A model generated the notes under the pieces. That model had not been told where the DNA came from and searched no databases. It saw only the letters and a program-made list of their open reading frames with translations. DNA of 64,000 bases. Source: Candidatus Micrarchaeota archaeon (GTDB lineage Archaea; Micrarchaeota; Micrarchaeia; Micrarchaeales; Micrarchaeaceae). A program made the position numbers and the translations under genes. The stretch is taken from contig JASHRX010000023.1 of NCBI GenBank assembly GCA_030037075.1, forward strand, positions 4,008 to 68,007. Reading direction: 5' to 3'. Below are positions 7,831 to 28,976 of the stretch, piece after piece. Each line of letters starts with the position of its first letter. Position 1 is the first letter of the stretch.

Positions 7831-7953
7831 GCTTACACTTTAGAAGCTGTAAATTCAGGATGAAAAGCAGAGCCCTTCTTACCTAAGAATTACTCTGATC
7901 CATTGCCTCTTTATATTTATAAAGATTTACGTTTACCGGCAGTATCATTTCCA

Positions 7954-9442: not shown

Positions 9443-9508
9443 TTGCGCCGCCCGGCATACGCATTTATATTCTCTGAAACTAATCCTTAAACAAATTAGA
9501 TACCGCAG

Positions 9509-9602: not shown

Positions 9603-9737
9603 TCTTTTTTCTTGACCCTGCAGTTCCGCTATTTCTTCTTTTTGTTCAAAAAGCATCCTATATGTTTTATATCTTACCTTACAAATACATATATAAGATA
9701 AAAGAACCACGAATAGTGGAACTCTGGGGTGTGCATT

Positions 9738-10232
9738 ATGCCTGGAAACGATCTCACATACGATGCCCTGTGGCAGACCTCTCAGAAAGAGAAGAGGACC
9801 AACGAGCTTCAGCTCGTCCCAAAGACCTTTTACGATGACATGACGGAGTTCATAAACGGCATGGAGAAGGAGTCGCACACAGAAGAGGAGAAGCAGAGGG
9901 CCTCCAACGCGGCAAGGATGTTCAACGAACTTTACGCAAGGAGAAAGCAGAAGATAATGATGTATGTCGCGTACGGGAGGCAGCTGCCCAGCCAGATGCC
10001 GCAGCAGGACACTGACCTCTATGACGAAGCCGCAAAGGTGATGAAGGCAGCGGAACTAAGCAGCGGCGCAGCGGCGCAAAAGCCGCAGCTCAAGGTGATG
10101 CAGGACATACCCGAAATAATACTGCCTTCGGGCAGGCGCGTCGGCCCGCTTGCGAGGGACCAGACAATTGAGATAAAGGAGAAGGATGACCGAATGTTCC
10201 TGGTAAACAATAAGATTTGCAAAGATATGTAG
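9738..10232 (+). CDS. GINS subunit (Gins51/Sld5-Psf1-like), replication factor
   Basis: N-terminal LTYDALWQTSQKEKRTNELQLVPKTFYDD pattern and a C-terminal small beta domain (VMQDIPEIILPSGRRVGPLARDQTIEI). A family-level call made from memory of the motif pattern. Confidence 0.6.
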   Translation: MPGNDLTYDALWQTSQKEKRTNELQLVPKTFYDDMTEFINGMEKESHTEEEKQRASNAARMFNELYARRKQKIMMYVAYGRQLPSQMPQQDTDLYDEAAKVMKAAELSSGAAAQKPQLKVMQDIPEIILPSGRRVGPLARDQTIEIKEKDDRMFLVNNKICKDM

Positions 10233-10240
10233 TTGGTTTT

Positions 10241-10522
10241 ATGAAGATGGTAAAAGAGATAAACGCGTACTGCCCGAAGTGCAACAAGCACACGCCTCAT
10301 TCGGTGAAGCTCTACTCCAGCAAGCCCGCCAGCGGCCTAGGCATGGGCGCGAGGAGGCGTGAGAGAAAGCTGAAGGGCTATGTGGGCAAGGTAAAGGGTA
10401 AGGCAACGCAGATCAAGGTTGCGAAGAGGCAGAAGGTTCTTCTCGAGTGCAAGGAGTGCCATTACATTGTGGAAAGGGTTGTGGGGACCAGGACGAAGAA
10501 GAAGCTGGAGATAAAGGCCTAG
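10241..10522 (+). CDS. rpl44e: 50S ribosomal protein eL42 (L44e)
   Basis: YCPKCNKHTPHSV...ECKECH zinc-ribbon pattern and a basic composition. Confidence 0.85.
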   Translation: MKMVKEINAYCPKCNKHTPHSVKLYSSKPASGLGMGARRRERKLKGYVGKVKGKATQIKVAKRQKVLLECKECHYIVERVVGTRTKKKLEIKA

Positions 10523-10532
10523 AACGATTAAC

Positions 10533-11315
10533 GTGGAAACACCAAGAATCGGCTCGCTTGTGATAGCACAGGTAGCCAAGATAACGCAGTTCGGCGCGTA
10601 CTGCCGCCTTCCGGAGTACAACAACATGGAAGTCTTCATGCCGATACGTGAAGTTTCGTCCGGCTGGATAAAGAACATCAGAGAGTTCATCCACGAGGGC
10701 CAGAACCTGGTCTGCAAGGTTGTCCTCTACGACAAGGACAGGAACACGATCGATGTATCGCTGAAGAAGGTCACGCCAAAGGAAACGAAGGTGAAGATCG
10801 GCGAGTACAACCTGGAGAAGAGGCTGGGAGCGCTGCTCAACCAGGCGGCCAAGCAGGCAGGCCTGCAGGGCAACGAGCAGATAATGCAGGAGCTGCAGCA
10901 CGAGTTCGGGAGCTACACAAACCTCTTCCAGCAGGCCACTACGAACTCGGAGCAGTTCGAGAAGCTGAAGATTCCGAAGAAGCTGAAGGAGGAGATACAG
11001 AAGGCAATAGAGGCGAACAGGAAGGAGAAGAAGCACACCGTCTCTTACATCGCGACAATATCTACGTTCAATACGGAATCCGGGGCTAGCGAGCTGCGAG
11101 GCATGCTCTCCGAGGCCCAGAAAGCAGGAGTTGAGGTATCCTACATAAGCGCGCCCAAGTACAGGTTCCTGTCAGACGGCAAGGATTACACCGAGGCGGA
11201 ATCCAAGATAAAGAAGGCCGAGTCGATAATAACAGCAAAGCTCGGCAAGGGCACCTTCAAGCTCGAGAAGGAGAAGCTGAAGAAGGAGAAGGAGGACATA
11301 CTCGCGCAGATATGA
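10533..11315 (+). CDS. eif2a: Translation initiation factor aIF2 alpha
   Basis: N-terminal S1 domain (GSLVIAQVAKITQFGAYCRLPEYNNMEVFMPIREVSSGWIKNIREF) plus helical and alpha-beta domains; GTG start. Confidence 0.9.
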   Translation: METPRIGSLVIAQVAKITQFGAYCRLPEYNNMEVFMPIREVSSGWIKNIREFIHEGQNLVCKVVLYDKDRNTIDVSLKKVTPKETKVKIGEYNLEKRLGALLNQAAKQAGLQGNEQIMQELQHEFGSYTNLFQQATTNSEQFEKLKIPKKLKEEIQKAIEANRKEKKHTVSYIATISTFNTESGASELRGMLSEAQKAGVEVSYISAPKYRFLSDGKDYTEAESKIKKAESIITAKLGKGTFKLEKEKLKKEKEDILAQI

Positions 11316-11322
11316 TGGTAGA

Positions 11323-12114
11323 ATGAAGAACGGCACAATGATAGTGATGAACAAGGACGTCAAGGTGAGCAAGCCAATCCTCGTTGTAGGGCTGCCAGGG
11401 ATAGGCAGCGTCGGGAAGCTGGTCGCGGAGCACCTCAAGCACGAGTTCGAGGGCGAGAGGTTCGCAACCCTCTATTCCAACCACTTCCCGCACAAGGTTG
11501 TCATGCTGAAGAGCGGAGGAGTCCGCCTTGTCAGCAACCGTTTCTATCTCATAAAGAGCAAGAAGAAGAACGGCAACGACATAGTGATACTCACTGGCGA
11601 CGACCAGGCGGTTACCCCAGAAGGCCAGTACTACGTTAACGAGAAGATCGTGGAGTTCTTCAAGGAGAAACTTAAGGGTGAGTTCATCTACACGATCGGA
11701 GGATACACCACCGGTGAGCCGATAGACGGGATTCCGAAGGTCTACGGGAACGCGACAAGCAAGGCGGTTGTAGAGCAGTTCAAGTCCTCCAAGGTAATAT
11801 TCGGGAAGTCGAAGGGTATGATATGGGGTTCAGCTGGCCTCATAATCGCGTTTGCAAAGATGAAGAAGGTGAGCGGGATATGCCTGATGGGTGAGACCGC
11901 CTTCGTGGACCTCGACGCCGCGGCTGCCAAGTCCGTCCTCCTTGTGCTGGCCGACCGCCTTGGGCTCAGCATAGACACGCAGAATCTCGATAAGATAATC
12001 GCAAAGACAGCGAAGGCCCTGAAAGAGATTGAGAGGCAGATGAGCGGTTTCCAGGTATCATCTGGAGGGGTAGCCGGCCCCGCACCTGAGCAGCACCCGA
12101 CGTACATCAGGTAA
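11323..12114 (+). CDS. PAC2-family proteasome-assembly-chaperone-like protein (COG1938)
   Basis: PILVVGLPGIGSVGKLVAEHL...ILTGDDQ motif and the conserved neighbourhood next to aIF2-alpha. Confidence 0.7.
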   Translation: MKNGTMIVMNKDVKVSKPILVVGLPGIGSVGKLVAEHLKHEFEGERFATLYSNHFPHKVVMLKSGGVRLVSNRFYLIKSKKKNGNDIVILTGDDQAVTPEGQYYVNEKIVEFFKEKLKGEFIYTIGGYTTGEPIDGIPKVYGNATSKAVVEQFKSSKVIFGKSKGMIWGSAGLIIAFAKMKKVSGICLMGETAFVDLDAAAAKSVLLVLADRLGLSIDTQNLDKIIAKTAKALKEIERQMSGFQVSSGGVAGPAPEQHPTYIR

Positions 12115-17138: not shown

Positions 17139-18304
17139 GTATCCTCACGATAAACTACGATGCAAAGGAAGGGGCCGTTTACGCGGCAGACCAGTCTACA
17201 GTAGACACGCTCAAGGAGGGCAGCATAGGCACCTACAAGGACGGCAGGCTCTATCTCGAGCCAGAGGAGGCAATGTACCTGATGGACGTCAGGAAAACAG
17301 AGTGCGTCTCTTCTGCAACAGGCGCATCTCTGTCATTCAACGACCTTGCCGAGAAGTACGCAAAGAGCAAGAAGCTAATGGCGAGGTACTTCACGTACAA
17401 AGACTGGAGGGACCGCGGCCTGATAGTGAAGAGTAACGACTTCGAGGCAAAGCAGAATACAAAGACACCAATAAAGAGATACCCCTCATCGAAGCTCAGG
17501 CTCGCAGGGTACAAGCTAACCGGGGTCTTCTTCCCCGAAGACATGACAACCGTAGCCGAGGACTCGCACGACAGCAAGGTCATATACACGGAACTGTGGT
17601 TTGGCCAGTATGGGACGTACAAGCTCGGAGAGCACGGCATACTGAACAAGCTGGATGTCTACGAAACCCTCTACCTTATCGACAACAATGTGCTTACTGT
17701 ATCAAACAGCACCAGGAACGAGGTCTACAACACCGCGTACCAGCGGAGGTCGGATTTCCCAAAGCTCTACCAGGTGTACAGCGACTGGCGCGACAAGGGC
17801 TACGTCGTCAAGACGGGTTTCAAGTTCGGCACGCACTTCAGGATATATTTCCCGGGTGCGAAGCCCATACGCGACGACCCCTCATGGGTGCACTCAAAGC
17901 ACGTAATACACGTATTCCCCAGGGACGTGAAACTGCTCATATCGGAATGGGCGAGGGCAATACGCGTCGCGCACTCCGTCAGGAAGACGTTCATACTCGC
18001 GATACCAGGCAAGAGCCGGAAGAAGAACATGCACATTGACTTCCTGCTATACCACCGAAAGGGCAAGGAAACCGAGAACCCCAAGGAGGACGCGCCGAGG
18101 TACGCAATGCTTTCGCTCAGCGAGGACGAGTATATTGGGGGCAGCGAGCTCTCAGGTGTCATAAACGAGGCCAAGCAGAGGAAGCTTGAGCTGATAATTG
18201 CGATAGCGGACAGGGAGACAGCTGTCACATACTACAAAGTGAGAAGGATAGAGCTGCCAAAGAGCCCATACGAGTACTACGAGATAGACTGGATGCAGCC
18301 CTAG
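17135..18304 (+). CDS. endA: tRNA-splicing endonuclease, single-chain three-unit type
   Basis: A catalytic unit (YSDWRDKGYVVKTGFKFGTHFRIYF...HSKHVIHVF...SVRKTF) lies between an N-terminal EndA-like unit (YKDWRDRGLIVKS, no catalytic triad) and a C-terminal structural unit. At 389 aa it is about twice a homotetramer-type EndA. Confidence 0.8.
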   Translation: MSILTINYDAKEGAVYAADQSTVDTLKEGSIGTYKDGRLYLEPEEAMYLMDVRKTECVSSATGASLSFNDLAEKYAKSKKLMARYFTYKDWRDRGLIVKSNDFEAKQNTKTPIKRYPSSKLRLAGYKLTGVFFPEDMTTVAEDSHDSKVIYTELWFGQYGTYKLGEHGILNKLDVYETLYLIDNNVLTVSNSTRNEVYNTAYQRRSDFPKLYQVYSDWRDKGYVVKTGFKFGTHFRIYFPGAKPIRDDPSWVHSKHVIHVFPRDVKLLISEWARAIRVAHSVRKTFILAIPGKSRKKNMHIDFLLYHRKGKETENPKEDAPRYAMLSLSEDEYIGGSELSGVINEAKQRKLELIIAIADRETAVTYYKVRRIELPKSPYEYYEIDWMQP

Positions 18305-18961
18305 TCACTTTCCTTTGCCCTTCAGGCTCTTCAGCTCCTGCTCGAGTGCCGCGATCCTCTTCTGCGTGCCCTCGTCAGACCCTCCGCCCCTCTTCCTGGC
18401 CGCCGGCTTCCTCATCTTCAACGCAAAGGCGGCAGCGCACACAACAACCACAGCAACTATAACGCCGGCTATGATGTATAGCGCCTGGGAGCTTATCGAG
18501 AAGCCTTTCTTGGGCGGCGGTGCATTTGAATAGATTATAACTTCCTTGCCCAGTCCTCCCTGTATTACCGCGCCGCCGGGGTTGCTCGCATTTGTGCTTG
18601 CCAGCACCTGCATTATGCCATCCCACTTCACCCCTACCTGGTCTGTTGCGGGCATGGAAACGCTCACAAGCACGGTCGTCTGCTGTCCGGGCTGCAGCGT
18701 TCCTGATAGCGGCGTCACAGTGACCGTCGGGTTTATGTTGTTCCCTACTGGGTTATACTGCGGCGGCGAAACAGTGTACGCTATGTCTGCTGACCCGCCA
18801 TCGAATATAGTGTAGCTGAGCGTCTGGTTGCCCCCAAGGCTCACGTTGAATACCAACGACCCTGCTGACTGGCCCAGGTTCTGCGCCCGTGCCTGCGTGC
18901 TAAAAAGGGTGAGAAGCAGCACAGAGGCAAGCGTAATCGTAATCGCGGTTTTGATATTCAT
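18305..18961 (-). CDS. Sec-exported single Ig-like-domain protein with a C-terminal TM anchor and a basic coiled cytoplasmic tail
   Basis: Signal peptide ending ...QARA|QN, a ~125-aa beta-rich domain, a PPPKK hinge, TM ALYIIAGVIVAVVVVCAAAFAL, and the tail KMRKPAARKRGGG...KRIAALEQELKSLKGKGK. Confidence 0.7.
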   Translation of the reverse strand: MNIKTAITITLASVLLLTLFSTQARAQNLGQSAGSLVFNVSLGGNQTLSYTIFDGGSADIAYTVSPPQYNPVGNNINPTVTVTPLSGTLQPGQQTTVLVSVSMPATDQVGVKWDGIMQVLASTNASNPGGAVIQGGLGKEVIIYSNAPPPKKGFSISSQALYIIAGVIVAVVVVCAAAFALKMRKPAARKRGGGSDEGTQKRIAALEQELKSLKGKGK

Positions 18962-18980
18962 CTAAAGCGCACTTTATTTA

Positions 18981-19502
18981 TCAGCAGACATTAGTTATTA
19001 TAATGTTCTGCGAATAGGTGCTGGCCACCTGCCCGGCCGGGATTCCTAGGCCAAACCATACATTCGTGCTTGAGGAAGAGCCAACCACTATCGCTGTGTT
19101 GGCCGGTATAAGTGTCAGTGCCGTACCAGATGCGTAGCTTGTGGACGAGCTCGATGAATATACGGTGTTGCTCACGCCGAAGTTGTTGCCGCCCGACACC
19201 CAGTTACTGCCAGAAACCGCAATTACCGCCCCTCCGTTTCCTCCGTTAGTATCCAGCACGTTCTGCGATGTCGTGAGGCTGTTCTGGCTTGCGGTAATGG
19301 TACCGAATGATATGGACTGCGTGTTTAGCGATATTTCGCATCCTGCAGGCACCGTCAAAGATAGTATTACGTTCGGTGCTATCTGGTTCGTCGCATACGC
19401 GACCTGGACACCGAGCTGCAATGCCAACAGGGCAAGAAAGACCCCAGAGGCTATCCCTGCAGCTATAGCCACCCCGAGAATTCTTGATCTATCAGCATAC
19501 AT
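18981..19502 (-). CDS. Small secreted protein, paralog 1 of 3, with a Cys-terminated beta-rich domain
   Basis: 173 aa with an N-terminal hydrophobic signal ending VAYA and a mature domain ending TYSQNIIITNVC-stop. Its ATG overlaps the stop of paralog 2 (ATGTATGCTGA). Confidence 0.75.
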   Translation of the reverse strand: MYADRSRILGVAIAAGIASGVFLALLALQLGVQVAYATNQIAPNVILSLTVPAGCEISLNTQSISFGTITASQNSLTTSQNVLDTNGGNGGAVIAVSGSNWVSGGNNFGVSNTVYSSSSSTSYASGTALTLIPANTAIVVGSSSSTNVWFGLGIPAGQVASTYSQNIIITNVC

Positions 19503-20013
19503 TGGTTATCACCACGTTCTGCGAGTAAGTTCCCGCGGCCTGGCCAACCGGCACTCCCGTACCGAACCATATATTCGAGCTTGTAGCGCTCGCAACTGCA
19601 ATGTTAGTGTTCGCAGAAGCTGTAGTCAGCTGCGTTCCCGATGCATAGTTTGTTGCAGAGCTAGACGAGTATGTTGTGTTCTTGACCCCGAAGCTGTTCC
19701 CACCAGATATCCAGTTCCCTCCGTATACCCAAATGTATGTTCCAACGTTTCCTCCATTGGTGTCCAGCACGTTCTGCGATGTCGTAATCGAATTGACTCC
19801 GGGGTTCAGGTCTCCAAAATTGGCAGAGAAGACGTTCAGTGATATTGCGCACGAAGAGGGCACAGTCGCAGTAGCAATCACGTTCGGCGCTATTTGGTTT
19901 GCGTATGCCAAAGGCACAGCGCTCTGGAATAGAAACAAGACGGACATCGCGACTGCCGCAACTACAATTGCAACAACAGCGGCTCCAAGCATATTTCTAT
20001 TCGGCAAGGTCAA
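19492..20013 (-). CDS. Small secreted protein, paralog 2 of 3, with a Cys-terminated beta-rich domain
   Basis: 173 aa, signal ending LAYA, domain ending TYSQNVVITNVC-stop; a TATA-like CTTTATATATG lies about 30 nt upstream. Confidence 0.75.
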   Translation of the reverse strand: MTLPNRNMLGAAVVAIVVAAVAMSVLFLFQSAVPLAYANQIAPNVIATATVPSSCAISLNVFSANFGDLNPGVNSITTSQNVLDTNGGNVGTYIWVYGGNWISGGNSFGVKNTTYSSSSATNYASGTQLTTASANTNIAVASATSSNIWFGTGVPVGQAAGTYSQNVVITNVC

Positions 20014-20039
20014 TCGCCCAGCAAATTATCAAATCCTTA

Positions 20040-20050
20040 CATATATAAAG
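20040..20050 (-). promoter_or_regulatory. TATA box for paralog 2 (and the coupled paralog 1)
   Basis: The minus strand reads CTTTATATATG about 30 nt upstream of the start at 20013. Confidence 0.4.
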
Positions 20051-20069
20051 GTTTACTTTTCCTCGCTTG

Positions 20070-20591
20070 CTAGCACAGGTTTGTCACCAGTATGTTTTGT
20101 GTGTATGTGTCTGCCGTCTGTCCCGGTGGGATGCCGAGGCCGAACCAAATTGTTGCGCCAGACGCAGCCCCCACTGCAATGTTGGTGTTCGCAGGTATAA
20201 GTGTGAGTGCATTCGCTGATTTGAAAAGTACGCTGTTGCTGCTCGACCACACCGTGTTGCTTACTCCAAACGTGTCTAGTGCATTAGCCCCCATCCAGTT
20301 GCCTCCGCTCACTGCTACGAACGCGCCGCCGTTGCCGTTGTTCAAATCCAAGACATTCTGCGATGTCGTGACGGTGTTAGACCCAGCCAGTACCACGCCA
20401 AAGCTTATCGACTGCACCAACGATATCTCGCACGAGGCCGGCACGGTTAATGAGAGTATGACATTTGGGGCCACGGAGTTGTTTGCGTATGCAGGCACCA
20501 CGGCGTATTGCAGCATAAAAATTGAGGACACTGCAGCCAAGGCAAAAGCCGCTAGCACTATTGACCTGATTCCCAACTCGCGCAAAGACAA
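20070..20591 (-). CDS. Small secreted protein, paralog 3 of 3, with a Cys-terminated beta-rich domain (TTG start)
   Basis: 173 aa, signal ending PAYA, domain ending TYTQNILVTNLC-stop. The first in-frame start after an upstream stop is TTG. Confidence 0.7.
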   Translation of the reverse strand: MSLRELGIRSIVLAAFALAAVSSIFMLQYAVVPAYANNSVAPNVILSLTVPASCEISLVQSISFGVVLAGSNTVTTSQNVLDLNNGNGGAFVAVSGGNWMGANALDTFGVSNTVWSSSNSVLFKSANALTLIPANTNIAVGAASGATIWFGLGIPPGQTADTYTQNILVTNLC

Positions 20592-20618
20592 ACATCATCG
20601 CCAGTATCAATAAGCCTA

Positions 20619-20630
20619 GATAATATTTAA
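20619..20630 (-). promoter_or_regulatory. TATA box for paralog 3
   Basis: The minus strand reads TTTAAATATTAT about 30 nt upstream of 20591. Confidence 0.4.
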
Positions 20631-20655
20631 ATCTCTCATTTGGCCCCGTGCCAGG

Positions 20656-23600
20656 CTAGCACACATTCGTCAGCACTATATTCTGCGTGTATGTCCCGGC
20701 CACTTGCCCAGTTGGTATCCCCAAGCCGAAGTATATGCTGTTAGAGCCTCCAGAACCCGTATTTGCTGGTATAAGCACAAAAGTGTTCGAGGTTACCAAA
20801 GTAAGGGCGTTCCCGGCATAGCTGTCGTCGCTCGTGACGTCCCAGAGCGTGTTGCCCACGCCAAAATTGTTATCCCCAGATATCCAGTCGCCTCCATAAA
20901 CCCAAAGGTAGGCGGGGACCCCGCCGTTGTTAACGTCAGTAACTACCTGGGTCGTGCTGTACGTCTCGCTCGCTATTATGTCCCCAAACAGTATGCTGCT
21001 GGTGCTCAAGGATATCTGGCAGGCATTCGTGTTTGTGAAGCTGACGAGTACGGTATTCGGGGCCGCGGAAGTTCCCGACGACGGGTTAGGGATATAGTTT
21101 CCTGCGGAGAAAACATTCGCTATTGTATAAGAGTAGGAGCCCGGAGGGTCTGCAAAAACTATACTATTCGGGGCAATTGCATTAAGCGTTATTCCATTGT
21201 AAATGACGTTCCACGTCGCTCCTGCAGGAAGCCCGGATTCCGTGAAATTGATTACTCCCTCCAAGGTGCCGGGCGTGGCCCCGGGCATTATGCCGAGAGG
21301 CGGATAGGTCCGGGCGTTGACCCACTGAACAGTAAAGGAGTTTGTGGACGATGTTGGCGTAGTTGCCGCCAGCACCACAGAAAAGTACATCGCATTAATC
21401 GGTATAGTGGAGAGAGTCGTCACACTGTTCGCGAAGTAGTCGTAATGCTGGTTTTGTGACGCAGTGGCGTTCCATCCAATCCCTAAAACTTGCGGGAAAT
21501 TCCCGTTGGATAAAATCTTGGTGCCCAGTGCCGCAGTGCCAGAGGAGCTAATCTGTATGGGCACAACGTTTGCGCTACCCGCTAATCCATTAGAGCCCAC
21601 CATATAGCCTGACTCATAACCCTTGCCTCCCGCGGCGAACGTGACCGATGTGCTCTCCTCAAATCCAGCCGTCTTGGTGGATCCCTGTAATGTTTTGGGC
21701 GTAGTTATTAGGCCCGCGAACCAGTACGGCCACGCGGTGTATGCGTTCAAAGAAACAATGCCGGCACTATCTGCGGTTTCTGCGGTGAGCTTTAGGCCAT
21801 TGTCCACAGTTTCTGAAGCCCCTGTCCCGCCAACCGTACCGGACCACTTGCTCGTGTTGAGCGCGGCTCCCCTGAAATCATCATAGAAGCTAAATACCGT
21901 ATTCCCGTTGTCGTATTCGGCATATTGGTCGGAACCGCAGCCGGATATCGTGTTGGTTGGGTTCGAGCACGACAACTGTGGTGCCTCGCCAGTTGTAGTT
22001 CCATTCATCAGGGTAACGCTATTCACTGCGAATCCCATCAGGATTACTTGCGAGCTAAGGTCTCCGATGCCGAGGCCAGTGTTCATTCTTAGCCAGTATA
22101 CCGTATTTCCAGACGTGTATAGGTCGTTTGATGACTGCTCATTCACCAAGTTGCCGTCCAGCCAGGAGTCTATCAGCGTACCATTCGTATAGGCAAACTC
22201 TATGTTTGTCAGAGTGTTTGTTTCATACTGCTGGTACTCAAGACTATTCACCGCAACCATCTCCTGGAACCCCGTGCCTGTCCCTACGTTTTGATTGTTA
22301 GTCAGCGTAATTGGGACCCAATAGATTATGTTAGGAGGTATTATCGGCGTGCTCACAAAAGAGGAGGCATTGCCCAGCAAGTACACTCCCGATACCAGGG
22401 AGTTCGCAACCGCGCAGTAGTATGTTGGGATGGCAGGCGCGGCGAGGTACGTTGCCGAAGTCTGCCCGGATAAAATCGAAAGGCTGTTGCAAGCATACGT
22501 CGGCGAGGTATACCACTGCCAGGTGTATGAGCCTGAGCCCCCAGTAGCAGATGCAGTCAGTAGTACATTGCCACCGGGCGTTATTATGGGGTTATCGGGG
22601 GTTATTGTCACTGTAGGGTGCCCAGGGTTAGGCGGCAGGCTGTTGAAGGTGACGCTCGGCATTATCCCGTTCGGCGGATAGGCCCTGACTCTAGTCCAGT
22701 TCAGGCCATAGGCCGCACCATCGGTAGCCTGGCTTATAAATTCTATGTAGTACTGCTGCGAGGCAGGAGTGTTGGCCGCAGGCGTGTTCGAGCTCACAAT
22801 AAGATCGTTCACAGCGTATATCGCATTCGAAGCGGGAAGATACTGGGTTGAGAGGCCATAGGTTGTGCTAACAGGAGTCATTATGGCGCCGCCGTAAGAA
22901 ACATTGTGGGTAACTGTCTTGACGGCTGTTCCCATCAAAATATGCATTCCATTGAAAGCTATGTAAACCGCATTGGCTACATCTCCTCCTGTCTCAGAGA
23001 GAGCCCAAGTGGTGGTTGCTGCTCCACTGCCGCTTTTTCCGAAGTAGAATGCGCCCGGTCTGTATGTCATTCCGTTAGTAGTGATGTAGAAGTTTGCCTC
23101 CACAATGTTACCAGGGTTCACCAGCGGACTGTTGACAGCTACGGTCGCCCTCGTTATTCTTATACCATTGCCAGGGTCGGTCAACGACGCGCTGGAGCTC
23201 CATCCTGCTGGCAGGCCATTCGAGAAGTTCCAGTACTCCAAGAAGACGCTGTTCCCGTTGTCATATTGTCCATATGAAGTCTCAGGGCATCCATAGGGGC
23301 ACTGAAGTTGAGGCGCAGCCCCTGTCACCACGTTATCGAGCAGGTTTATTGAAGTGGGCGCGAATCCCATGAAAACGGTAACCGCATTCGCGCTAGACGG
23401 GTTTATCCCGTTCCACAGATTCAGCCAAAAAACGTCGTTTGACACGGTGTTCAGGCTGTTCGCCTGGAGTTCGTTAAGCTGGTTGCCTTCGAACCATGAA
23501 GGCACCAGGGTGCCGTTGGTATAGAAGAACTCTATGTTTGACATGTTCGACGACTCGTACGCCTGGTATGTGATGCTGTTAACTACCAGCATCTGCTGGA

Positions 23601-25137
23601 AGGGCTTGGGCGTCGCCGCTACTGCGTTGTTCGTTATCGTGATTGGTACGTAGTCTGTTATGTTGATCGGAACTACTTTTGCTGATGGGTCTACAGGGCT
23701 GTAATTTGCATTGCCAGGGGAGTCAAACGTCACCAACGCATCCTTTCCTGCAGGTAGCCCATTGATCCGCAATGTTCTGCCAACATTGCCGTCCGTCACG
23801 TTCGCAGAGTAACCGTTAAACACCCTGCCCCCTACAGTTACATTATAGCCGAACTCAAGGTTGTTATGCGGTACGCTTCCGTTCAACGTTATTGAAACGT
23901 TGTAGGTCTTCCTGCCGTCAAGGACAGGGACATCCACCACATCTGTTGCGCCCGATCCCGATATCTTAACACCAGCTACCGACAAGGTGAGCGAAGGCGT
24001 GGCCTTGACGACCGCAACCCTATAATGCAAAATGCTGTTGCTGCCGCTGTAGGCCACATAGTTGAACCTACTTCCTGCACCAACTAGGTTGCCCTTAGAG
24101 TAGAACGAGCCATAAGTTACATTAAACACAACATTCTGTACAGATGCGTTAGTTATATTGCCCTCCAGCAAGCCTAGTACGTTCCGATATTGGCTTCCAT
24201 TGAGCGGCGTCATGTTCTGGAGCTGCGGTAGGCTAAATTGGCTGCCGATGAGCAGCTCGCCGCTCTCCGAAAGTCCACCGACAAGCGGCCCGTAGGGCGA
24301 GTTTGTTGCAAGGTTCTGCCCCTCGGGAATGGTGGTGCTTGTTGAAGATGTGGTGCTCGTAGTAGTGGTTGCCGCTTGCGCAAAATATGTTACGTTGAGA
24401 GAGCTTCCGGCCGCCAGTATTCCATTGGCTGGGTGCGGCTCATAGACGTAGTTGCCAACCACCACTGGAAGTATATCAAATGGGTAGTTCCCAGGAAGGC
24501 TTGTAAAAACAATCGAGCCGGGGGCGATAACGTTTACTGGTACCGAGTTATATGTGGCCTCCCACGGCGCGTTTATTGGTAAGCCCCCCTCGGTAAATAC
24601 CGTATAGATTTTCAGCTGTATGGTTGTGGTCACAGTGCTTTGTGTGGTTGTTGAGGTTGCCGTAGATGTTGCTGATGTCGTTACCGTGGTTGTTGAAGTT
24701 GAGGATGCCTCGGTCGAATTAAAAGTAATCGCAGTGGAGTTTCCTGCAACAACGTAGCCGTTCGACGGCATGGCTGTGAAGACGAGTCCATTCTGAGGTT
24801 GCGCATATGCACTGAAGTTGTAGCCCCCTGGCACCACCTGGAATATTATATTGGATGGTGACACAGCCTCTTCTGTCACTCCGTTATACACCACTCCCCA
24901 CACATATCCAGCTTCCAGCCCAGATTCGTAGAAATTTGCGTACGCAGTTTCGGGTACTGTGGTAGAAGACGAAGAGGTTGTGGATGTAGTTGTGCTAACA
25001 GTAGTCGTATCTGAATTGCTGTCCTGGAACATAAGCTTGTGCTGTGGGGCAGAGGCAATGTGGCTGGCCTGCAGTAGCGCTATTATGACTACCGCAAGCA
25101 AAATTGCAGCAAAACAGCTGCGTTCTAGCACCCCCAT
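20656..25137 (-). CDS. Giant (1493 aa) secreted multi-domain surface protein or adhesin ending in the same Cys-terminated domain as the three small paralogs
   Basis: Signal peptide (..HIASA|PQ), Ser/Thr-rich linkers, and three ESGLP-type beta domains. Two large internal repeats start with (Y/W)VPIT(I/L)TNN; I read them as DUF2341-like plus concanavalin/LamG-like. There is also an Ig-like domain (GGSGSYTWQWY). The C-terminal 125 aa ends TYTQNIVLTNVC-stop. Many N-x-S/T sequons. Confidence 0.85.
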   Translation of the reverse strand: MGVLERSCFAAILLAVVIIALLQASHIASAPQHKLMFQDSNSDTTTVSTTTSTTSSSSTTVPETAYANFYESGLEAGYVWGVVYNGVTEEAVSPSNIIFQVVPGGYNFSAYAQPQNGLVFTAMPSNGYVVAGNSTAITFNSTEASSTSTTTVTTSATSTATSTTTQSTVTTTIQLKIYTVFTEGGLPINAPWEATYNSVPVNVIAPGSIVFTSLPGNYPFDILPVVVGNYVYEPHPANGILAAGSSLNVTYFAQAATTTTSTTSSTSTTIPEGQNLATNSPYGPLVGGLSESGELLIGSQFSLPQLQNMTPLNGSQYRNVLGLLEGNITNASVQNVVFNVTYGSFYSKGNLVGAGSRFNYVAYSGSNSILHYRVAVVKATPSLTLSVAGVKISGSGATDVVDVPVLDGRKTYNVSITLNGSVPHNNLEFGYNVTVGGRVFNGYSANVTDGNVGRTLRINGLPAGKDALVTFDSPGNANYSPVDPSAKVVPINITDYVPITITNNAVAATPKPFQQMLVVNSITYQAYESSNMSNIEFFYTNGTLVPSWFEGNQLNELQANSLNTVSNDVFWLNLWNGINPSSANAVTVFMGFAPTSINLLDNVVTGAAPQLQCPYGCPETSYGQYDNGNSVFLEYWNFSNGLPAGWSSSASLTDPGNGIRITRATVAVNSPLVNPGNIVEANFYITTNGMTYRPGAFYFGKSGSGAATTTWALSETGGDVANAVYIAFNGMHILMGTAVKTVTHNVSYGGAIMTPVSTTYGLSTQYLPASNAIYAVNDLIVSSNTPAANTPASQQYYIEFISQATDGAAYGLNWTRVRAYPPNGIMPSVTFNSLPPNPGHPTVTITPDNPIITPGGNVLLTASATGGSGSYTWQWYTSPTYACNSLSILSGQTSATYLAAPAIPTYYCAVANSLVSGVYLLGNASSFVSTPIIPPNIIYWVPITLTNNQNVGTGTGFQEMVAVNSLEYQQYETNTLTNIEFAYTNGTLIDSWLDGNLVNEQSSNDLYTSGNTVYWLRMNTGLGIGDLSSQVILMGFAVNSVTLMNGTTTGEAPQLSCSNPTNTISGCGSDQYAEYDNGNTVFSFYDDFRGAALNTSKWSGTVGGTGASETVDNGLKLTAETADSAGIVSLNAYTAWPYWFAGLITTPKTLQGSTKTAGFEESTSVTFAAGGKGYESGYMVGSNGLAGSANVVPIQISSSGTAALGTKILSNGNFPQVLGIGWNATASQNQHYDYFANSVTTLSTIPINAMYFSVVLAATTPTSSTNSFTVQWVNARTYPPLGIMPGATPGTLEGVINFTESGLPAGATWNVIYNGITLNAIAPNSIVFADPPGSYSYTIANVFSAGNYIPNPSSGTSAAPNTVLVSFTNTNACQISLSTSSILFGDIIASETYSTTQVVTDVNNGGVPAYLWVYGGDWISGDNNFGVGNTLWDVTSDDSYAGNALTLVTSNTFVLIPANTGSGGSNSIYFGLGIPTGQVAGTYTQNIVLTNVC
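21268..22326 (-). repeat. Internal protein-level repeat B of the giant gene (DUF2341-like + lectin-like module)
   Basis: Residues ~938-1290 (IIYWVPITLTNNQNV...NIEFAYTNGTLIDSWL...GEAPQLSC...YDNGNTVF...ARTYPPLGIMP) align by eye with residues ~493-830. Confidence 0.7.
22648..23661 (-). repeat. Internal protein-level repeat A of the giant gene
   Basis: Residues ~493-830 (ITDYVPITITNNAVA...NIEFFYTNGTLVPSWF...GAAPQLQC...YDNGNSVF...VRAYPPNGIMP). Confidence 0.7.
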
Positions 25138-25187
25138 GACTAGACCTATACCAATTTTTGAGTATATCTTCCAAGATATATATTAAT

Positions 25188-25976
25188 CTAGTACTTCTTC
25201 CTGAAGCGTTGGATGAATCTCTGCCAGAACGAAGCATAAACCGGCTGCATCACCGGAGCCCCGCCTCCTCCGCGCGATGCGTATTTGTTAGACACGCCCT
25301 TCATGGCCTTCGAGAAGCGCGCCCTCGGTTTGTATAGGTATGCAGGTATATGCGCCGCGATGCTCATGGGTATCGCCTCATCAGCGGGCAGCACCCCCGC
25401 AACATCCCCTTCGTACATGTCCGCTATCTCGTTGACGTTCAGCTCCCATCTCGAATATCCCACCTTGTTCACAATCAAAGAGTGCTTCAGGTGCAGCTTG
25501 TCGTACGCGTCAGACAGCCTGACCGCGCTCGCCGAAGAGGGCATGTCAGGCACCGTCACTATTATATCTTCATCGAAGTTCTTCAGCGCAATTCCGGAAT
25601 CGTATCCCGGCGCCGTATCAACCACGACAAAATTGTAGTTGGACTTCCTGAGTTGCTGCATGAAGCTTGAGATGGCCCCCGGCCTCTGAATGAAAGCCGA
25701 TGTCTTTATTTCTCCAGGGAGCACGTGCAGCCCGCTCGGTGCATGTATTGATACGGCCTTCTCCAGTTTCGCTCTCTTGAGTATCACTGCCTGAACTCCC
25801 GCATTTGTCTCCTCCAAACCAAGGTGGAAGCCAACGCTCGGGTTTACGAAATCCATATCGACAAGCAGGGTCTTGTAGCCGTAGCTTCTGATCGCAGCGG
25901 CCAGGTTGGTCGAGATTGTGGTCTTGCCCACGCCCCCCTTCTGGGATGACACTCTTATCATGTACGGCTTAGGCAT
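25188..25976 (-). CDS. MinD/ParA-family P-loop ATPase with a C-terminal amphipathic helix
   Basis: Deviant Walker A SSQKGGVGKTT, LLVDMD, VVVDTAPG; C-terminal SFWQRFIQRFRKKY. The start overlaps or abuts the stop of the upstream 574-aa gene (alternative ATG at 25961). Confidence 0.85.
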   Translation of the reverse strand: MPKPYMIRVSSQKGGVGKTTISTNLAAAIRSYGYKTLLVDMDFVNPSVGFHLGLEETNAGVQAVILKRAKLEKAVSIHAPSGLHVLPGEIKTSAFIQRPGAISSFMQQLRKSNYNFVVVDTAPGYDSGIALKNFDEDIIVTVPDMPSSASAVRLSDAYDKLHLKHSLIVNKVGYSRWELNVNEIADMYEGDVAGVLPADEAIPMSIAAHIPAYLYKPRARFSKAMKGVSNKYASRGGGGAPVMQPVYASFWQRFIQRFRKKY

Positions 25977-27693
25977 TCTCGTCTCCTTTTATCCTGTTTT
26001 TGATCCTCGCCAACTTTATCATGTCCTCATGGGTGTACTTAGGCTCTCTCTTCCTGTACGCACGTTCAATAGTCAGCAAGATAATTAATATTATCGTTGC
26101 AGCTCCTATCCCAGCAAGCGCAACTTTAGCCTTCTGCAACTGGGCTGCCGTCTCACTTTCTGAAGCCTGGCTGCCTTTTGTCGTGGTAGTCGCCTTTCCT
26201 CCCTGGGGGGCCAGCACTAAAACAGGTATGCTCTGCGATAGGTTGAACTGCGCTGAGCTTATGTACAGGTTGTATATCAGCGTTCCAGTAAAGTTGCCCA
26301 CCGATGTGTAAAAAGAGCGCTGCAGCAGCTGGTTGGGCGTCGCATTCACCACCTGCACCGGATTTCCGATGCTGGTCGAGAGCGGGCCTGTCAAATAGAA
26401 GGTAACCGGCTGCGAGAGGGTTCCCGTGTAGAAGACCGATACGGATATGTTGCCAGATGAATCTGTGTAAAGCTGCGGCGCGTGTATGTCAACAACTTTG
26501 ATAAGGCTGCTGCTCGATACGGGAGTTGGCGCAGCGAAGATGTTCTGCGCGAACGAAACCAGTTCCGGCTTCGTTATATTTGTCACTTGGTAGTATGCAT
26601 AGAGCTGCTGACCTGCGAGTATCTGGCCCACGCTCCAGGTTATCGTGTACCCATTCGGCCCTAGCGTCACGTTATTCGGAAGGCCATACGCCGATATGTC
26701 CGATATGTTGTTTATTGCGGGAGCTGGAAGCACGGTGAACAGAGTTCCATTGTATATGGAGCTGTTCCCGTTGTTAACAATCTCTATTACCCCGCTAAGC
26801 GACCTTAGAGAGTCTGTCAGGTATGTCTGGCCAACTACCTGCAGGCCATTGTTCAGCGCGCTGTAAACCGTGAATGTAAGGTATTCTGTCTGAATGTGGG
26901 TTGGGGACCCTATTACAGATACGTTCACTATCAGCGGTACGATATAGGTTCCAGGAGTGGTATTCGCATTAGTTTTGAAGGTGGCCTCCAGGCCCGCCGT
27001 CTGCCCGGGCGAAAGCTTCAGGCTTGTAACCGAGAGGCTAAGCAGGCGCGTGAAGTTCGAGCCCACGTTGAGCGTCACGGTCTCGTTCGCGTTAGCCGTG
27101 GACAGCAGGGCTATCTGGGTCACAAGCCCCTGCCCCGCTATTGCCGATGTAGTGAGAGGTATTGTCGTTATCGATAAACCTGGCACGGGCGTTATTGGTG
27201 GAGGTCCTCCGCCTCCGCCGCCCCCTCCGGAGTTGCGGTTGCCGTTGTTAGACTGCGTAACATCAAACTGGAGGCTGCTGGAGGGCGACGTCTCGTACGC
27301 GCTGTCCAGGTAGTACCCTGCGAATGCGCTAAGCGTATAGGTGCCCTGGTCAGGTATCGCCCCAGATATGTAAACTACTGCGTTCTCCGCCTGGCTGGGC
27401 GAAAGCGGCACCAGCTGGTATGTAGAGGTAAAGGAGGACGGCCCCGCGATTGATACGTTTAGTATCACGTTCGTCGCAGCGTACGATCCATAGTTTACCA
27501 AAGTCACGTTGAGCGGTACTGTCGAGCCTGTACTGAAGCTAGAGGCGGTGCTCAGGTTCGTTATCAGGACTGCGTTTCCTATGACTGATACGTTGGCCAA
27601 TACAGAACCGCCGCTGCTAGCGGCAGATATAGCTGCAAACTGCAGCGCAGCCACAAAAATCAATCCAGCTATGAGCGCGAAGTTACTTTTCAT
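25969..27693 (-). CDS. Sec-exported multi-Ig-like (CARDB/NEW3-like) protein with a C-terminal TM anchor
   Basis: Signal peptide, a CARDB-like first domain (PLNVTLVNYGSYAATNVILNVSI), a G8P3 hinge, further beta domains, TM VALAGIGAATIILIILLTI, and a basic tail. Confidence 0.75.
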   Translation of the reverse strand: MKSNFALIAGLIFVAALQFAAISAASSGGSVLANVSVIGNAVLITNLSTASSFSTGSTVPLNVTLVNYGSYAATNVILNVSIAGPSSFTSTYQLVPLSPSQAENAVVYISGAIPDQGTYTLSAFAGYYLDSAYETSPSSSLQFDVTQSNNGNRNSGGGGGGGGPPPITPVPGLSITTIPLTTSAIAGQGLVTQIALLSTANANETVTLNVGSNFTRLLSLSVTSLKLSPGQTAGLEATFKTNANTTPGTYIVPLIVNVSVIGSPTHIQTEYLTFTVYSALNNGLQVVGQTYLTDSLRSLSGVIEIVNNGNSSIYNGTLFTVLPAPAINNISDISAYGLPNNVTLGPNGYTITWSVGQILAGQQLYAYYQVTNITKPELVSFAQNIFAAPTPVSSSSLIKVVDIHAPQLYTDSSGNISVSVFYTGTLSQPVTFYLTGPLSTSIGNPVQVVNATPNQLLQRSFYTSVGNFTGTLIYNLYISSAQFNLSQSIPVLVLAPQGGKATTTTKGSQASESETAAQLQKAKVALAGIGAATIILIILLTIERAYRKREPKYTHEDMIKLARIKNRIKGDENA

Positions 27694-27780
27694 GCTAACA
27701 CAAGCGTGCGGCCTACACGCTAACAGCTAAACCTTCCTTTAACGGAAATAAAAGGCTTCCGCTATCTTGTGGTAAAAGAG

Positions 27781-27855
27781 CGGGCCCAGGGGGATTTGGA
27801 CCCCCGACCTACTGGTTAAGAGCCAGCCGCTCTGACCAGGCTGAGCTATGGGCCC
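27781..27855 (-). tRNA. tRNA-Lys (CTT), intron-less
   Basis: The minus strand reads GGGCCCA-TA-GCTC-AGCCTGGTCA-GAGC-G-GCTGG-CTCTTAA-CCAGT-AGGTC-GGGGG-TCCAAAT-CCCCC-TGGGCCC-G (75 nt). Confidence 0.9.
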
Positions 27856-27932
27856 TCCAAAGTGTTGTGTATCAACAATATAAAGCACTTTTTATCAATC
27901 GGGTCTTTAAGCCTGCGTTCCAAGAGCTAAGC

Positions 27933-28583
27933 ATGCAGCTAGCTCAGTTGGAGGCCATAGTCGCCACAATCATAGTCACTTTCTTCGCCGCTGTGCTCGC
28001 CATATTAATGACGCAGTCGTACCTGAAGAACAGGAAGAGGAGCCACATGTTCTGGAGCCTAGGCCTGTGGGTCTTCGTCCTCAGCGCCTTCCTCGAAATC
28101 CTCTTTGCGCTGAACATATACTCCGCAATACTGATGGCCGCCTATCTCTATTCAGTAGTCATACTGGTGCAGCTCCTTTCGCTGGGCTCGATACAGCTAA
28201 TATCGTCAAAAAGGATAATCAACAGCTACACGATATTCACCGCTATAGTTGCTGTCGTCGCTCTGATTTCTGTAATAGTGGGTCCAATCAAAAACCTGAT
28301 TGTAAACTACATAGTCTTCGGCCAGCCGACGCTGTTTATAGTGGTCGCGTCCTCCCTCGCCGTCTTCCCTGCAGCAGTAGTGCTGATATGGGTCGCTGCG
28401 ATAGGCTACAAGCATACGAGATCAAATAAGATGCTCGGCATCATCGCCGGGGTTTTCATAATATCTATAGCAGGAACGCTCTACATCGTATACTTCCCAT
28501 CGGTCCTGTACATAGCAGAGCTGCTGGGCGTCTTCCTGCTCTTTTATGGATTCTACAGCCCACCACGCAAGAGGGTAAAGTAG
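27933..28583 (+). CDS. Polytopic membrane protein of unknown function
   Basis: About 6-7 TM helices. The ATG at 27933 sits downstream of a TATA-like AATATAAAG; the ORF-track start at 27867 would overlap that promoter. Confidence 0.55.
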   Translation: MQLAQLEAIVATIIVTFFAAVLAILMTQSYLKNRKRSHMFWSLGLWVFVLSAFLEILFALNIYSAILMAAYLYSVVILVQLLSLGSIQLISSKRIINSYTIFTAIVAVVALISVIVGPIKNLIVNYIVFGQPTLFIVVASSLAVFPAAVVLIWVAAIGYKHTRSNKMLGIIAGVFIISIAGTLYIVYFPSVLYIAELLGVFLLFYGFYSPPRKRVK

Positions 28584-28976
28584 TCACACTCTTTTCCTGA
28601 AGTAGAATATTATAGACAGGGCTATCAGTGCATCCAGCGATAGGCACCATATGCATATTCTAAGCAACAAATACTGAGCGACGATTGAGTACATCATGCC
28701 GCCTATGCCACCAAGGAACCAGATGTCCGATACGACGCCCAACCTGTTCTTGAAGTAGGAGAACGGCACCAGGGCCAATATGAACCATGTTAAAGACCAT
28801 ACGGCTAACGGGACGTGCAGGATCACGGAATACTGGCTTGTTATCACAGACTCGCAGTTGATGATGTTGCCGCTCCCGCACACCAACGCGCCTGGGTAAT
28901 AGTGAACATAAGTAACATATATCGATACGAGTATGCCCACTATAAGAACAGCAAGGAGCGGCTTGTTTATGTTCAT
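28584..28976 (-). CDS. Vitamin K epoxide reductase (VKOR) family membrane thiol oxidase
   Basis: Four TM helices, a loop cysteine pair CGSGNIINC (7 residues between), an SQYS..HVP motif, and the active-site CIWC in the last TM. Confidence 0.75.
   Translation of the reverse strand: MNINKPLLAVLIVGILVSIYVTYVHYYPGALVCGSGNIINCESVITSQYSVILHVPLAVWSLTWFILALVPFSYFKNRLGVVSDIWFLGGIGGMMYSIVAQYLLLRICIWCLSLDALIALSIIFYFRKRV

Follow-up and report, generated by a model that had tools for sequence, protein, structure and literature searches.

Archaeal pili built by strand donation have been described in three groups, the filaments that resemble threads or bundling pili, those that resemble CanA, and the Tafi filaments, and their assembly has been seen as independent of chaperones and ushers (2025 paper, PMC12337348). 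The assembly pathway of the Sulfolobus threads has been described as unknown (PMC9715654), and some of the archaeal strand-donation filaments have been proposed to include tip or cap proteins and membrane anchors (PMC9715654, PMC12337348). For the WxL clusters of Firmicutes, AlphaFold2 predicts that a strand of WxLIP fills a gap in the WxL sandwich (PMC10599100, PMC9772566). Filaments have also been seen by cryo-electron tomography at the sites where a Micrarchaeon contacts its host, with their makers not identified (PMC8975820). Text searches of the literature returned no description of donor-strand pili in DPANN or Micrarchaeota, and host attachment and recognition in these archaea are largely unknown. 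Archaea of the Micrarchaeota type have a single membrane. Here, we describe an array of seven genes at positions 18305–27693 of a 64,000-nucleotide (nt) stretch of DNA from a Candidatus Micrarchaeota archaeon, a tiny, probably host-dependent cell (contig JASHRX010000023.1, positions 4,008 to 68,007, assembly GCA_030037075.1; the whole stretch is referred to as the window).

The array is supported by its sequences as a conserved, previously unannotated cell-surface assembly locus. A strand-complemented surface complex, organized around a C-terminal domain shared by several of the proteins and a membrane-anchored partner, is the probable product of the cluster. The more specific proposal, a thin surface fibre held together by donor-strand complementation, with a variable adhesin at its tip and with an anchored PapD-like protein as both chaperone and tether, is one that we consider evenly balanced. 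All of the evidence is computational. The cluster is a concrete, conserved and tractable candidate for host attachment, with a tip adhesin that varies, small subunits that are well defined, an anchored partner of its own and an ATPase for positioning as its putative parts.

Gene array and its recurrence in related loci

An earlier note, made from the DNA alone, had placed seven consecutive genes on the minus strand, and translation of the open reading frames (ORFs) of the window recovers each of them at the same positions:

25969–27693, minus strand: gene for a type I membrane protein of 574 amino acids (aa) (ORF)
25188–25976, minus strand: gene for a MinD/ParA-type P-loop ATPase, 262 aa (ORF and Pfam)
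20656–25137, minus strand: gene for the giant secreted multidomain protein, 1493 aa (ORF)
20070–20591, minus strand: pilin-like paralogue 1, 173 aa from TTG, with a signal peptide (A-Y-A site), an N-terminal extension and one domain
19492–20013, minus strand: pilin-like paralogue 2, with 173 aa if read from TTG and 166 aa if read from ATG; the protein used for modelling
18981–19502, minus strand: pilin-like paralogue 3, 173 aa (ORF and alignment)
18305–18961, minus strand: gene for a 218-aa type I membrane protein, labelled ANCH (ORF)

The coupling of neighbouring genes that had been read from the sequence also holds, with the start of the ATPase gene overlapping the stop of the upstream 574-aa gene by 8 nt and the start of paralogue 3 overlapping the stop of paralogue 2 by 11 nt, and a spacer of 50 nt lies between the ATPase gene and the gene of the giant protein. 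TTG start codons occur in two of the small ORFs, and in the public annotation (P0001) paralogue 2 begins at the downstream ATG and has 166 aa.

The ORFs of 30 loci (numbered with the prefix L), gathered with a narrower alignment of the shared domain and biased to close relatives, were scanned with profiles of the five gene families of the array. The full order, from the 574-aa homologue through MinD, the large protein and the pilin or pilins to the anchored protein, is also found in L012, L017, L019 and L024, with three pilins in L012 as in the window, and the order is partly kept in more than ten other loci from Micrarchaeota metagenome-assembled genomes (MAGs). Such recurrence of five families, mostly in the same order, indicates that the array is no chance juxtaposition. 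Several loci depart from the full set, including L022 and L027, which have no large protein, L001 and L013, which have no MinD, L014 to L016, which carry repeated pilin-anchor-pilin-anchor units, and L003 and L008, which are distant variants of the cluster. In every locus with downstream DNA, the gene of the anchored protein directly follows a pilin gene. The logic first proposed for the locus, a large protein and small subunits that share one assembly domain and are accompanied by a membrane-anchored Ig-like partner, is supported.

The genes that flank the array (tRNA endonuclease, diphthine synthase, RadA, VKOR and others) occur next to it in close relatives only and the functional unit is therefore exactly 18305–27693; these flanking genes, among them VKOR and that of an adjacent membrane protein, were considered and rejected as parts of the system. 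No usher gene is present, either in the cluster of the window or in any of about 25 loci related to it. PilB/FlaI, PilC/FlaJ and prepilin peptidase are likewise missing from the window cluster and from every related locus, as the earlier reading of the window had stated for the usual archaeal pilus machinery.

Some Micrarchaeota genomes hold at least two copies of the cluster or of its parts. L018 and L021 both come from the MAG YF4.bin12, and L022 (contig CAVXKI010000003.1) has such copies or parts at 6420–11404 on the plus strand and 17549–20525 on the minus strand, with a second MinD gene and a 568-aa protein with the pilin domain on the opposite strand. Multiple clusters per genome would fit cells that have several fibres or adhesins as alternatives.

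The shared domain, its N-terminal extension and the giant protein

The three small paralogues and the C-terminal 123 aa of the giant protein align with 47–60% identity and 39 invariant columns, including a cysteine at the start of the domain and another as the very last residue, and so the small proteins do carry the domain that ends the giant. In the giant this domain is:

20659–21024, minus strand: C-terminal pilin-like acceptor domain, aa 1372–1493, from the first conserved cysteine to the cysteine that is the last residue, without a donor-strand motif of its own

Single sequences of the domain have no significant match in Pfam, NCBIfam or the PDB (best match, SCPU, E 0.25). A word-indexed search found only seven relatives, far below the true size of the family; an exhaustive profile search covering 1.84 billion cluster representatives returned 665 proteins at E ≤ 1e-3, 333 of them at E ≤ 1e-10. 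Among the best 150 representatives, from which the architectures were read, there are proteins of ~170 aa with a signal peptide and one domain, proteins of ~320 aa with two domains in tandem, and 67 large proteins of 350–3421 aa in which the domain is invariably at the extreme C-terminus; the last residue is a cysteine in 146 of the 150. The named sources are Candidatus Micrarchaeaceae, Micrarchaeales and Micrarchaeota, plus one MAG labelled Marsarchaeota and one labelled Nanobdellati, a taxonomic range that rests on few named MAGs. Paralogue 1 has positional orthologues in L001 and L012 with 68–70% identity and paralogue 2 has them in the same loci with 57–62% identity, as expected for subunits with set positions along a fibre. 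The locus defines at least two unannotated protein families, the C-terminal pilin-like domain, which comprises hundreds of sequence clusters and needs annotation, and the anchored partner described below.

The mature form of paralogue 2 was modelled with AlphaFold2 from an alignment of 36 sequences (predicted local distance difference test, pLDDT, 86.5; predicted template modelling score 0.74). The best PDB match of the model in Foldseek is the bacterial pilin CsuA/B (7zl4; E 1.8e-3, template modelling (TM) score 0.55; also 6fq0 and 6fqa), and further top matches are PapA, the pilin domain of PapGII, FimG, FimF, FimH, FimA and CsuE. The archaeal cannula subunit CanA (9h8b) appears at rank 20 with a TM score of 0.40, and the threads (Saci_0406), the bundling pili (AbpA/TasA) and Tafi (TafE) are not among the best 50 structural matches and have no matches among PDB sequences. 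The scores are modest and so describe a resemblance at the level of fold, not proof of homology; the model weakly suggests a pilin-like Ig fold resembling that of chaperone-usher pilins. The earlier view that the domain matches no known family stands for its sequence and is refined for its predicted fold, which is closest to chaperone-usher pilins. In the Pfam scan of 54 family members, weak matches to SCPU, DUF4402 and Mfa_like_1 have the same tendency.

The same searches bring up non-pilin matches too. Foldseek also returns the N-terminal beta-sandwich of GH123 enzymes (E 5e-3 to 1e-2), the GH123 N-terminal Pfam models are weakly matched by 4 + 4 of the 54 members, and GH123 enzymes are the best PDB sequence matches of the family profile (E 0.4), which found no pilin among PDB sequences. 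Together with the DUF2341-like or lectin-like modules of the giant, these matches would fit a glycan-binding module, with the small proteins as secreted or surface lectins, the giant as a multivalent lectin and the anchored Ig-like neighbour as part of a generic island of surface proteins. We consider this improbable, as all of these matches are non-significant and a lectin leaves unexplained the obligate extreme C-terminal position of the domain with its terminal cysteine, the distribution of the donor-strand-like motif, and the invariant pairing with an anchored PapD-like protein across distant genomes.

Ahead of the domain, the 12 residues before the first cysteine of the small proteins are conserved as N-V-x-A-x-V-x-V-P-x-x-C, a motif in which hydrophobic residues alternate and a small residue takes the central position (column frequencies: V 66%, A 75%, V 61%, V 88%). 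The earlier description of the small proteins as a signal peptide and one domain therefore has to be extended by this strand motif of ~12 residues, which is missing from the giant. The proposed donor strands of the window are:

20433–20483, minus strand: N-terminal extension of paralogue 1, aa 37–53, NNSVAPNVILSLTVPAS (motif profile; coordinates from the translation)
19852–19899, minus strand: N-terminal extension of paralogue 2, aa 39–54, NQIAPNVIATATVPSS (motif profile)
19341–19391, minus strand: N-terminal extension of paralogue 3, aa 38–54, TNQIAPNVILSLTVPAG (motif profile; coordinates from the translation)

Scored in bits on a profile built from the small proteins, the motif reaches +15.4 in the small proteins themselves (leave-one-out), +13.0 in the N-domains and +6.5 in the C-domains of the tandem proteins, −18.7 in the segment before the domain in 74 large proteins, and −27.8 in random segments. 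In the giant, the strand that precedes the cysteine (NTVLVSFTN) is the final strand of a ~80-aa domain present in three copies and thus belongs to that upstream domain. Subunits would accordingly combine a donor strand with an acceptor domain and the large proteins would have the acceptor only, as in FimH/FimG/FimF/FimA or CsuE/CsuA/B, and this distribution of the motif is exactly what a donor-strand fibre with a tip adhesin predicts. In the monomer model of paralogue 2, mature residues 1–18 have no strand assignment and lie outside the beta-ladders, the first ten have a mean pLDDT of 67, and the conserved I-x-F-G segment is unpaired.

The two conserved cysteines covary. Among the N-domains of tandem proteins, 25 have both, 15 have neither and four have only one (Fisher p = 5e-8), and the tandem C-domains keep both cysteines even where the N-domain has neither, which together argue for a disulfide within the domain that joins the first strand to the C-terminus. 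A disulfide between subunits was rejected on the latter observation.

The N-termini of the small proteins raise the possibility of a type IV pilin. In close relatives they consist of basic residues, a glycine and then ~27 hydrophobic residues (e.g., RILG/VAIAAG...), superficially like a prepilin signal, and archaeal type IV pilins have Ig-like heads; a class III signal peptide, a retained hydrophobic helix and a beta-sandwich head, with the machinery encoded elsewhere, would be the corresponding architecture. In the family at large, the N-termini are short Sec signal peptides of the usual kind, with A-x-A directly before the strand motif (e.g., MEIWKLASVFAILAVFVMGVAYA/DSDD), the same domain ends large secreted proteins that have no such helix, the fold matches are to chaperone-usher pilins and not to type IV pilins, and the loci are devoid of type IV pilus genes, as noted above. 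The reading is hardly tenable and was rejected.

The giant protein, as mapped from its sequence, consists of a signal peptide, Ser/Thr-rich linkers, three ~80-aa beta domains, two DUF2341-like or lectin-like modules (DUF2341, E 3.7e-4 in Pfam), one Ig-like domain and the C-terminal pilin-like domain. The copies of the ~80-aa domain are:

24700–24950, minus strand: first copy, aa ~63–143
24370–24610, minus strand: second copy, aa ~176–255
21030–21270, minus strand: third copy, aa ~1293–1371

The signature of these copies, F-x-E-x-G-L...W...Y-N...P-G-x-Y, is also present in the distant locus L003, in its large protein. Pfam has no match for the domain, which may resemble repeats in surface proteins of acidophilic archaea. 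Searches of the PDB and Pfam with the giant and seven other large family members were almost without matches. Compared with the large protein of the syntenic locus L001, which has 953 aa to the 1493 aa of the window protein, the C-terminal domain is 70% identical and the rest is 31% identical over one stretch of 247 aa. A variable N-terminal part on a conserved C-terminal domain is what an adhesin that diversifies on a constant assembly module should show, and on these sequence features the giant is proposed to be a tip adhesin.

The giant could alternatively be the canopy of an S-layer, with the anchored proteins as membrane stalks, as the earlier note had suggested. Two-component S-layers with a membrane stalk are known in Sulfolobales, and large secreted proteins rich in Ser/Thr and in sequons stand next to anchored proteins in one operon-like array here. 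None of the NCBIfam models, including S-layer models of the TIGR01564/TIGR01567 type, matched the giant or the anchored proteins, and the hypervariability of the giant between close relatives, its absence from L022 and L027 and the presence of several clusters in some genomes fit adhesins better than a lattice protein. The S-layer protein of the cultivated Candidatus Micrarchaeum harzensis is a different one, a ~101-kDa protein with domains of the TIGR01564/TIGR01567 type (10.1101/2021.04.28.441871). An S-layer is thus very improbable and the suggestion was abandoned.

The anchored partner and the remaining genes

The 218-aa protein, read from its sequence, has a signal peptide with an A-x-A site, a beta-rich ectodomain, one C-terminal transmembrane helix and a basic tail. 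The ectodomain comprises an N-terminal strand (QNLGQSAGSLVFNV), a single Ig domain of the ASH/MSP/PapD-like type, a last strand (GGAVIQGGLGKEVIIY) with the invariant Lys139, and a Pro-rich linker. Across 22 diverse members of its family the N-terminal strand LG[EQ]xAGxLxFNV is highly conserved, the last strand GGAVIQxGLxKxxxI is conserved with its Lys invariant, and linker, transmembrane helix and a very basic cytoplasmic tail follow. These tails are extremely Arg/Lys-rich and very variable in length, reaching tens of R/K/A/S/T residues (e.g., L017:10431–11186 and L003:2907–3713); that of the window protein is short and predicted to be helical (QKRIAALEQELKSLKGKGK).

The profile of the anchored family significantly matches ASH-type domains, those of CFAP65 at E 4.3e-11 and those of Hydin at E 4.4e-9 and 5.2e-7, and in Pfam the 22 members match Cep192_D6 (16 members), HYDIN_VesB_CFA65-like_Ig (seven, best E 7.8e-6), OCRL ASH (six) and Motile_Sperm (three). 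PDB entries of the matched ASH/MSP domains carry the description 'PapD-like'. In Foldseek, a model of the 218-aa protein that is of low confidence matched ASH/MSP domains and the pilus chaperones FaeE, FimC and CsuC, in support of the profile result only. The earlier designation as an anchored Ig-like protein can thus be refined, by profile, to a member of the ASH/MSP/PapD-like superfamily, and the protein is proposed, from its sequence and position, to be a membrane-anchored chaperone and base anchor.

Such a partner would also suit a docking complex that does not polymerise, like that proposed for WxL proteins and WxLIP in Firmicutes, in which each domain-bearing protein is held singly by the anchored Ig protein, a strand of which completes the C-terminal beta-sandwich, and the small proteins are separate surface-displayed units or regulators of occupancy. 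The gene content corresponds one for one (small domain-only proteins, a large protein with the domain C-terminal to host-binding domains, and an Ig-like transmembrane partner), three of the 22 anchored homologues weakly match WxLIP_PGBD (best E 0.0076), and the pilin genes strictly adjoin the anchor genes, at some loci in repeated 1:1 pairs. This arrangement leaves unexplained why the N-terminal strand motif is present in the small and tandem proteins but not in the large ones, and why there are tandem two-domain proteins and position-specific paralogues. Further, the WxL domain family is matched by none of the seven window proteins and 54 family members scanned with Pfam, the conserved motifs of the shared domain differ from those of WxL, and the partner has one ASH-type domain in place of DUF916 and DUF3324, the latter of which is unmatched in the anchored family. 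A WxL-like complex is a serious alternative that we nevertheless think unlikely; the donor-strand-like extension and the tandem forms, in which the locus differs from WxL systems, suggest polymerisation.

The first two genes of the array appear to form a pair. The 574-aa protein, presumably an accessory component, has a signal peptide with an A-x-A site, CARDB-type Ig-like ectodomains, a Gly/Pro linker, a C-terminal transmembrane helix and a short, conserved basic tail. Its own matches to CARDB/NEW3 in Pfam are weak; CARDB matches seven of 11 homologues (best E 1.9e-5) and is all that profile and Pfam searches gave for the family. Homologues head the cluster in 14 loci. The ATPase, in which a Walker A motif of the deviant type (SQKGGVGKT) is combined with an amphipathic helix at the C-terminus (SFWQRFIQRFRKKY), matches Pfam AAA_31/ParA/CbiA above cut-offs, in agreement with its earlier assignment to MinD/ParA. 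It matches the archaeal MinD model TIGR01969 (minD_arch) with E 6.6e-32 and 110.7 bits, below the cut-off of 201.75 bits, and scores under the curated cut-offs of every named equivalog, and it is therefore, by sequence, a member of the MinD/ParA family and not a canonical MinD. Homologues of the ATPase directly follow the 574-aa homologue in seven other loci, all of them with the Walker A motif and the amphipathic C-terminus, and the CARDB-type protein appears to be the partner of the ATPase. Proteins of the MinD family are known to position envelope machines, including TadZ/CpaE of Tad pili, BcsQ of cellulose synthase and archaeal MinD paralogues, and by analogy we infer a positioning or organizing role for the pair.

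Potential transcription signals, read from the sequence, lie at three places in the array:

20624–20631, minus strand: TATA-like box TTTAAATA, upstream of paralogue 1
20042–20049, minus strand: TATA-like box TTTATATA, upstream of paralogue 2
25176–25186, minus strand: TATA-like stretch TTAATATATAT, ~44 nt upstream of the ATG of the giant gene

These boxes suggest separate promoters within the array for paralogue 1, paralogue 2 and the giant gene, unlike paralogue 3 and the ATPase, which are coupled by overlap to the preceding genes.

Among the neighbouring genes, a tRNA-Lys gene (anticodon CTT; 27780–27855, minus strand) is the immediate upstream neighbour of the 574-aa gene and separates the cluster from a divergently listed ORF (27867–28583, plus strand). 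About 0.9 kb from the cluster, a gene on the minus strand (28584–28976) encodes a VKOR-family protein, a DsbB-like disulfide-forming enzyme (PF07884, E 6e-13, above cut-off), which would suit the covarying cysteine pair of the pilin-like domains but stands beside the cluster in the window and its close relative L001 only. Farther away, a P-loop ATPase of the Mrp/NUBPL iron-sulfur carrier type (50289–51074, minus strand; PF10609, E 9e-67) is unrelated to the MinD-like gene of the cluster. Two large ORFs on the minus strand, one of 1129 aa with a membrane-like N-terminus (63–3449) and one of 673 aa with an N-terminus like a signal peptide (39221–41239), have no Pfam match at E ≤ 1e-3 and may encode additional envelope proteins.

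Proposed assembly and comparison with known systems

The gene content and gene order of the locus, the paralogy of its proteins, their fold- and profile-level similarities, the distribution of the motif and the covariation of the cysteines are direct observations, and the donor-strand fibre is the assembly that we propose from them. The product would be a pilus or fibrillum built by beta-strand complementation in the manner of chaperone-usher pili and adapted to a cell with a single membrane. Its structural proteins would be exported by Sec and cleaved at their A-x-A sites, after which the shared domain of ~125 aa, a pilin-like Ig fold closed by the disulfide between its first and its C-terminal cysteine, would accept a neighbour's strand. 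The candidate strand, N-V-x-A-x-V-x-V-P, is present in the small and tandem proteins, and each subunit could donate it to the subunit in front. The giant, an acceptor domain without a donor strand, could for that reason stand only at the distal tip, where its variable, lectin-like N-terminal modules would act as the adhesin. At the cell, the 218-aa protein would bind the open groove of the newest, cell-proximal subunit as chaperone and tether at once, until the N-terminal extension of an incoming subunit displaces this cap by strand exchange, so that the fibre would grow at its base while the base stays tethered. No usher would be needed, since there is no outer membrane to cross. The 574-aa protein and the membrane-binding MinD-like ATPase would form a separate module that probably acts on either side of the membrane to organize or position the site of assembly. 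The presence of three small subunits, each specific to its position, may point to a short, defined stalk rather than a long homopolymer. In PapD, Arg8 and Lys112 hold the C-terminal carboxylate of the subunit, and the obligate C-terminal end of the shared domain and the invariant Lys of the partner recall this anchoring, an analogy that we treat as a lead and not as a result.

Several observations weigh against this fibre. The chaperone-usher matches of the domain are weak in structure (E 2e-3 to 1e-1, TM score ~0.5), where they are mixed with non-pilin Ig-like folds (the GH123 N-terminal domain, ASH and MSP), and in sequence, where SCPU (PF05229) is reached only at E 0.23–0.25 in two of the 54 members and Fimbrial (PF00419) is unmatched. 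An hhalign comparison of the family with 14 Fim-type pilins of E. coli gave a probability of 17% (P 0.0014, 41 columns), in an alignment that pairs the extension, the first cysteine and I-x-F-G with the donor strand of Fim, its cysteine and V-x-L-G. For the anchored family, PapD_N and PapD_C are unmatched in all 22 members and the comparison with six E. coli pilus chaperones gave a probability of 4% (P 0.0097), which places the 218-aa protein outside the pilus-chaperone family; its AlphaFold model is poor (pLDDT 59.9, from seven sequences) and ASH-type Ig domains are widespread among surface proteins in general. Given these weak signals, both of them from E. coli K-12 alignments, no homology to chaperone-usher proteins is claimed. 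Cleavage at A-x-A is a prediction, and were the long hydrophobic N-termini uncleaved, the extension would be a tether and not a donor strand. The fibre model does not explain the 574-aa protein and the ATPase. Finally, polymerisation is itself inferred, and so are fibre polarity and the functions assigned to the anchored protein, to the MinD-like ATPase and to the 574-aa protein.

Two of the analogies drawn in the earlier note, to chaperone-usher pili and to WxL/Csc clusters, proved to be the closest known systems, the former by fold matches and the latter by its list of parts. The locus is like the chaperone-usher systems (Csu, Fim, Pap) in that the predicted fold of its domain is nearest to CsuA/B, PapA, FimG, FimF, FimA and the pilin domains of PapG, FimH and CsuE, in that the N-terminal extension of the small subunits, which the large proteins lack, alternates hydrophobic residues around a small central one, and in its two-part adhesin of variable N-terminal modules and a C-terminal pilin domain. 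Both also have a dedicated partner with an Ig domain of the PapD-like superfamily, and neither has a secretion-type assembly ATPase. Unlike those systems, the locus belongs to an archaeon and has no usher and no outer membrane, its partner is anchored in the membrane and has one ASH-type domain where PapD-type chaperones are soluble and have two domains, its pilin-like domain is not in the Fimbrial or SCPU sequence families, its predicted disulfide joins the first strand to the very last residue, and there are two extra conserved components, the CARDB-type membrane protein and the MinD-like ATPase. For the evolution of donor-strand assembly, a protein of the PapD-like superfamily that is genetically locked to pilin-like genes in a one-membrane cell suggests how a minimal, usher-free form of the chaperone-usher principle might be built.

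The likeness to the WxL/Csc clusters of Firmicutes is one of architecture only, consisting of small domain-only proteins, a large protein with the domain C-terminal to adhesin-like domains and an Ig-like transmembrane partner. Here, there is no WxL motif pair and no peptidoglycan to bind, the partner differs in its domains as described above, a MinD-like ATPase and a CARDB-type protein are present, and the small proteins carry the donor-strand-like extension and exist in tandem forms. The ATPase itself resembles the MinD/ParA positioning ATPases (archaeal MinD paralogues, TadZ/CpaE and BcsQ) in its deviant Walker A motif, its C-terminal amphipathic helix and its place in an envelope gene cluster, and differs from them in scoring below every named equivalog cut-off and in always following the 574-aa gene.

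With the threads (Saci_0406), the AbpA/TasA-like bundling pili, the cannulae and Tafi, the proposed fibre would share exported beta-sandwich subunits (Sec or Tat), donor-strand complementation and independence from type IV machinery. None of these archaeal filaments has a PapD-like partner or a MinD-like ATPase, they come from other phyla than the Micrarchaeota/DPANN locus described here, the window family is not close to them by fold, with only the cannula among the best 50 matches, and Tafi has a Tat signal where the small proteins have Sec signals with A-x-A. The principle of strand complementation and both of the closest analogues are already known, so the cluster is not categorically new. 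It may nonetheless, as a tentative proposal, represent a fourth class of archaeal donor-strand pili and the first with a dedicated PapD-like partner, in which an anchored single-domain chaperone caps and tethers the fibre, a MinD-like ATPase and a CARDB-type protein place the assembly site, and the variable giant tip proteins serve these episymbionts as host-recognition adhesins. If so, the locus would point either to a deep evolutionary link with the chaperone-usher pili of bacteria or to a striking convergence upon them.

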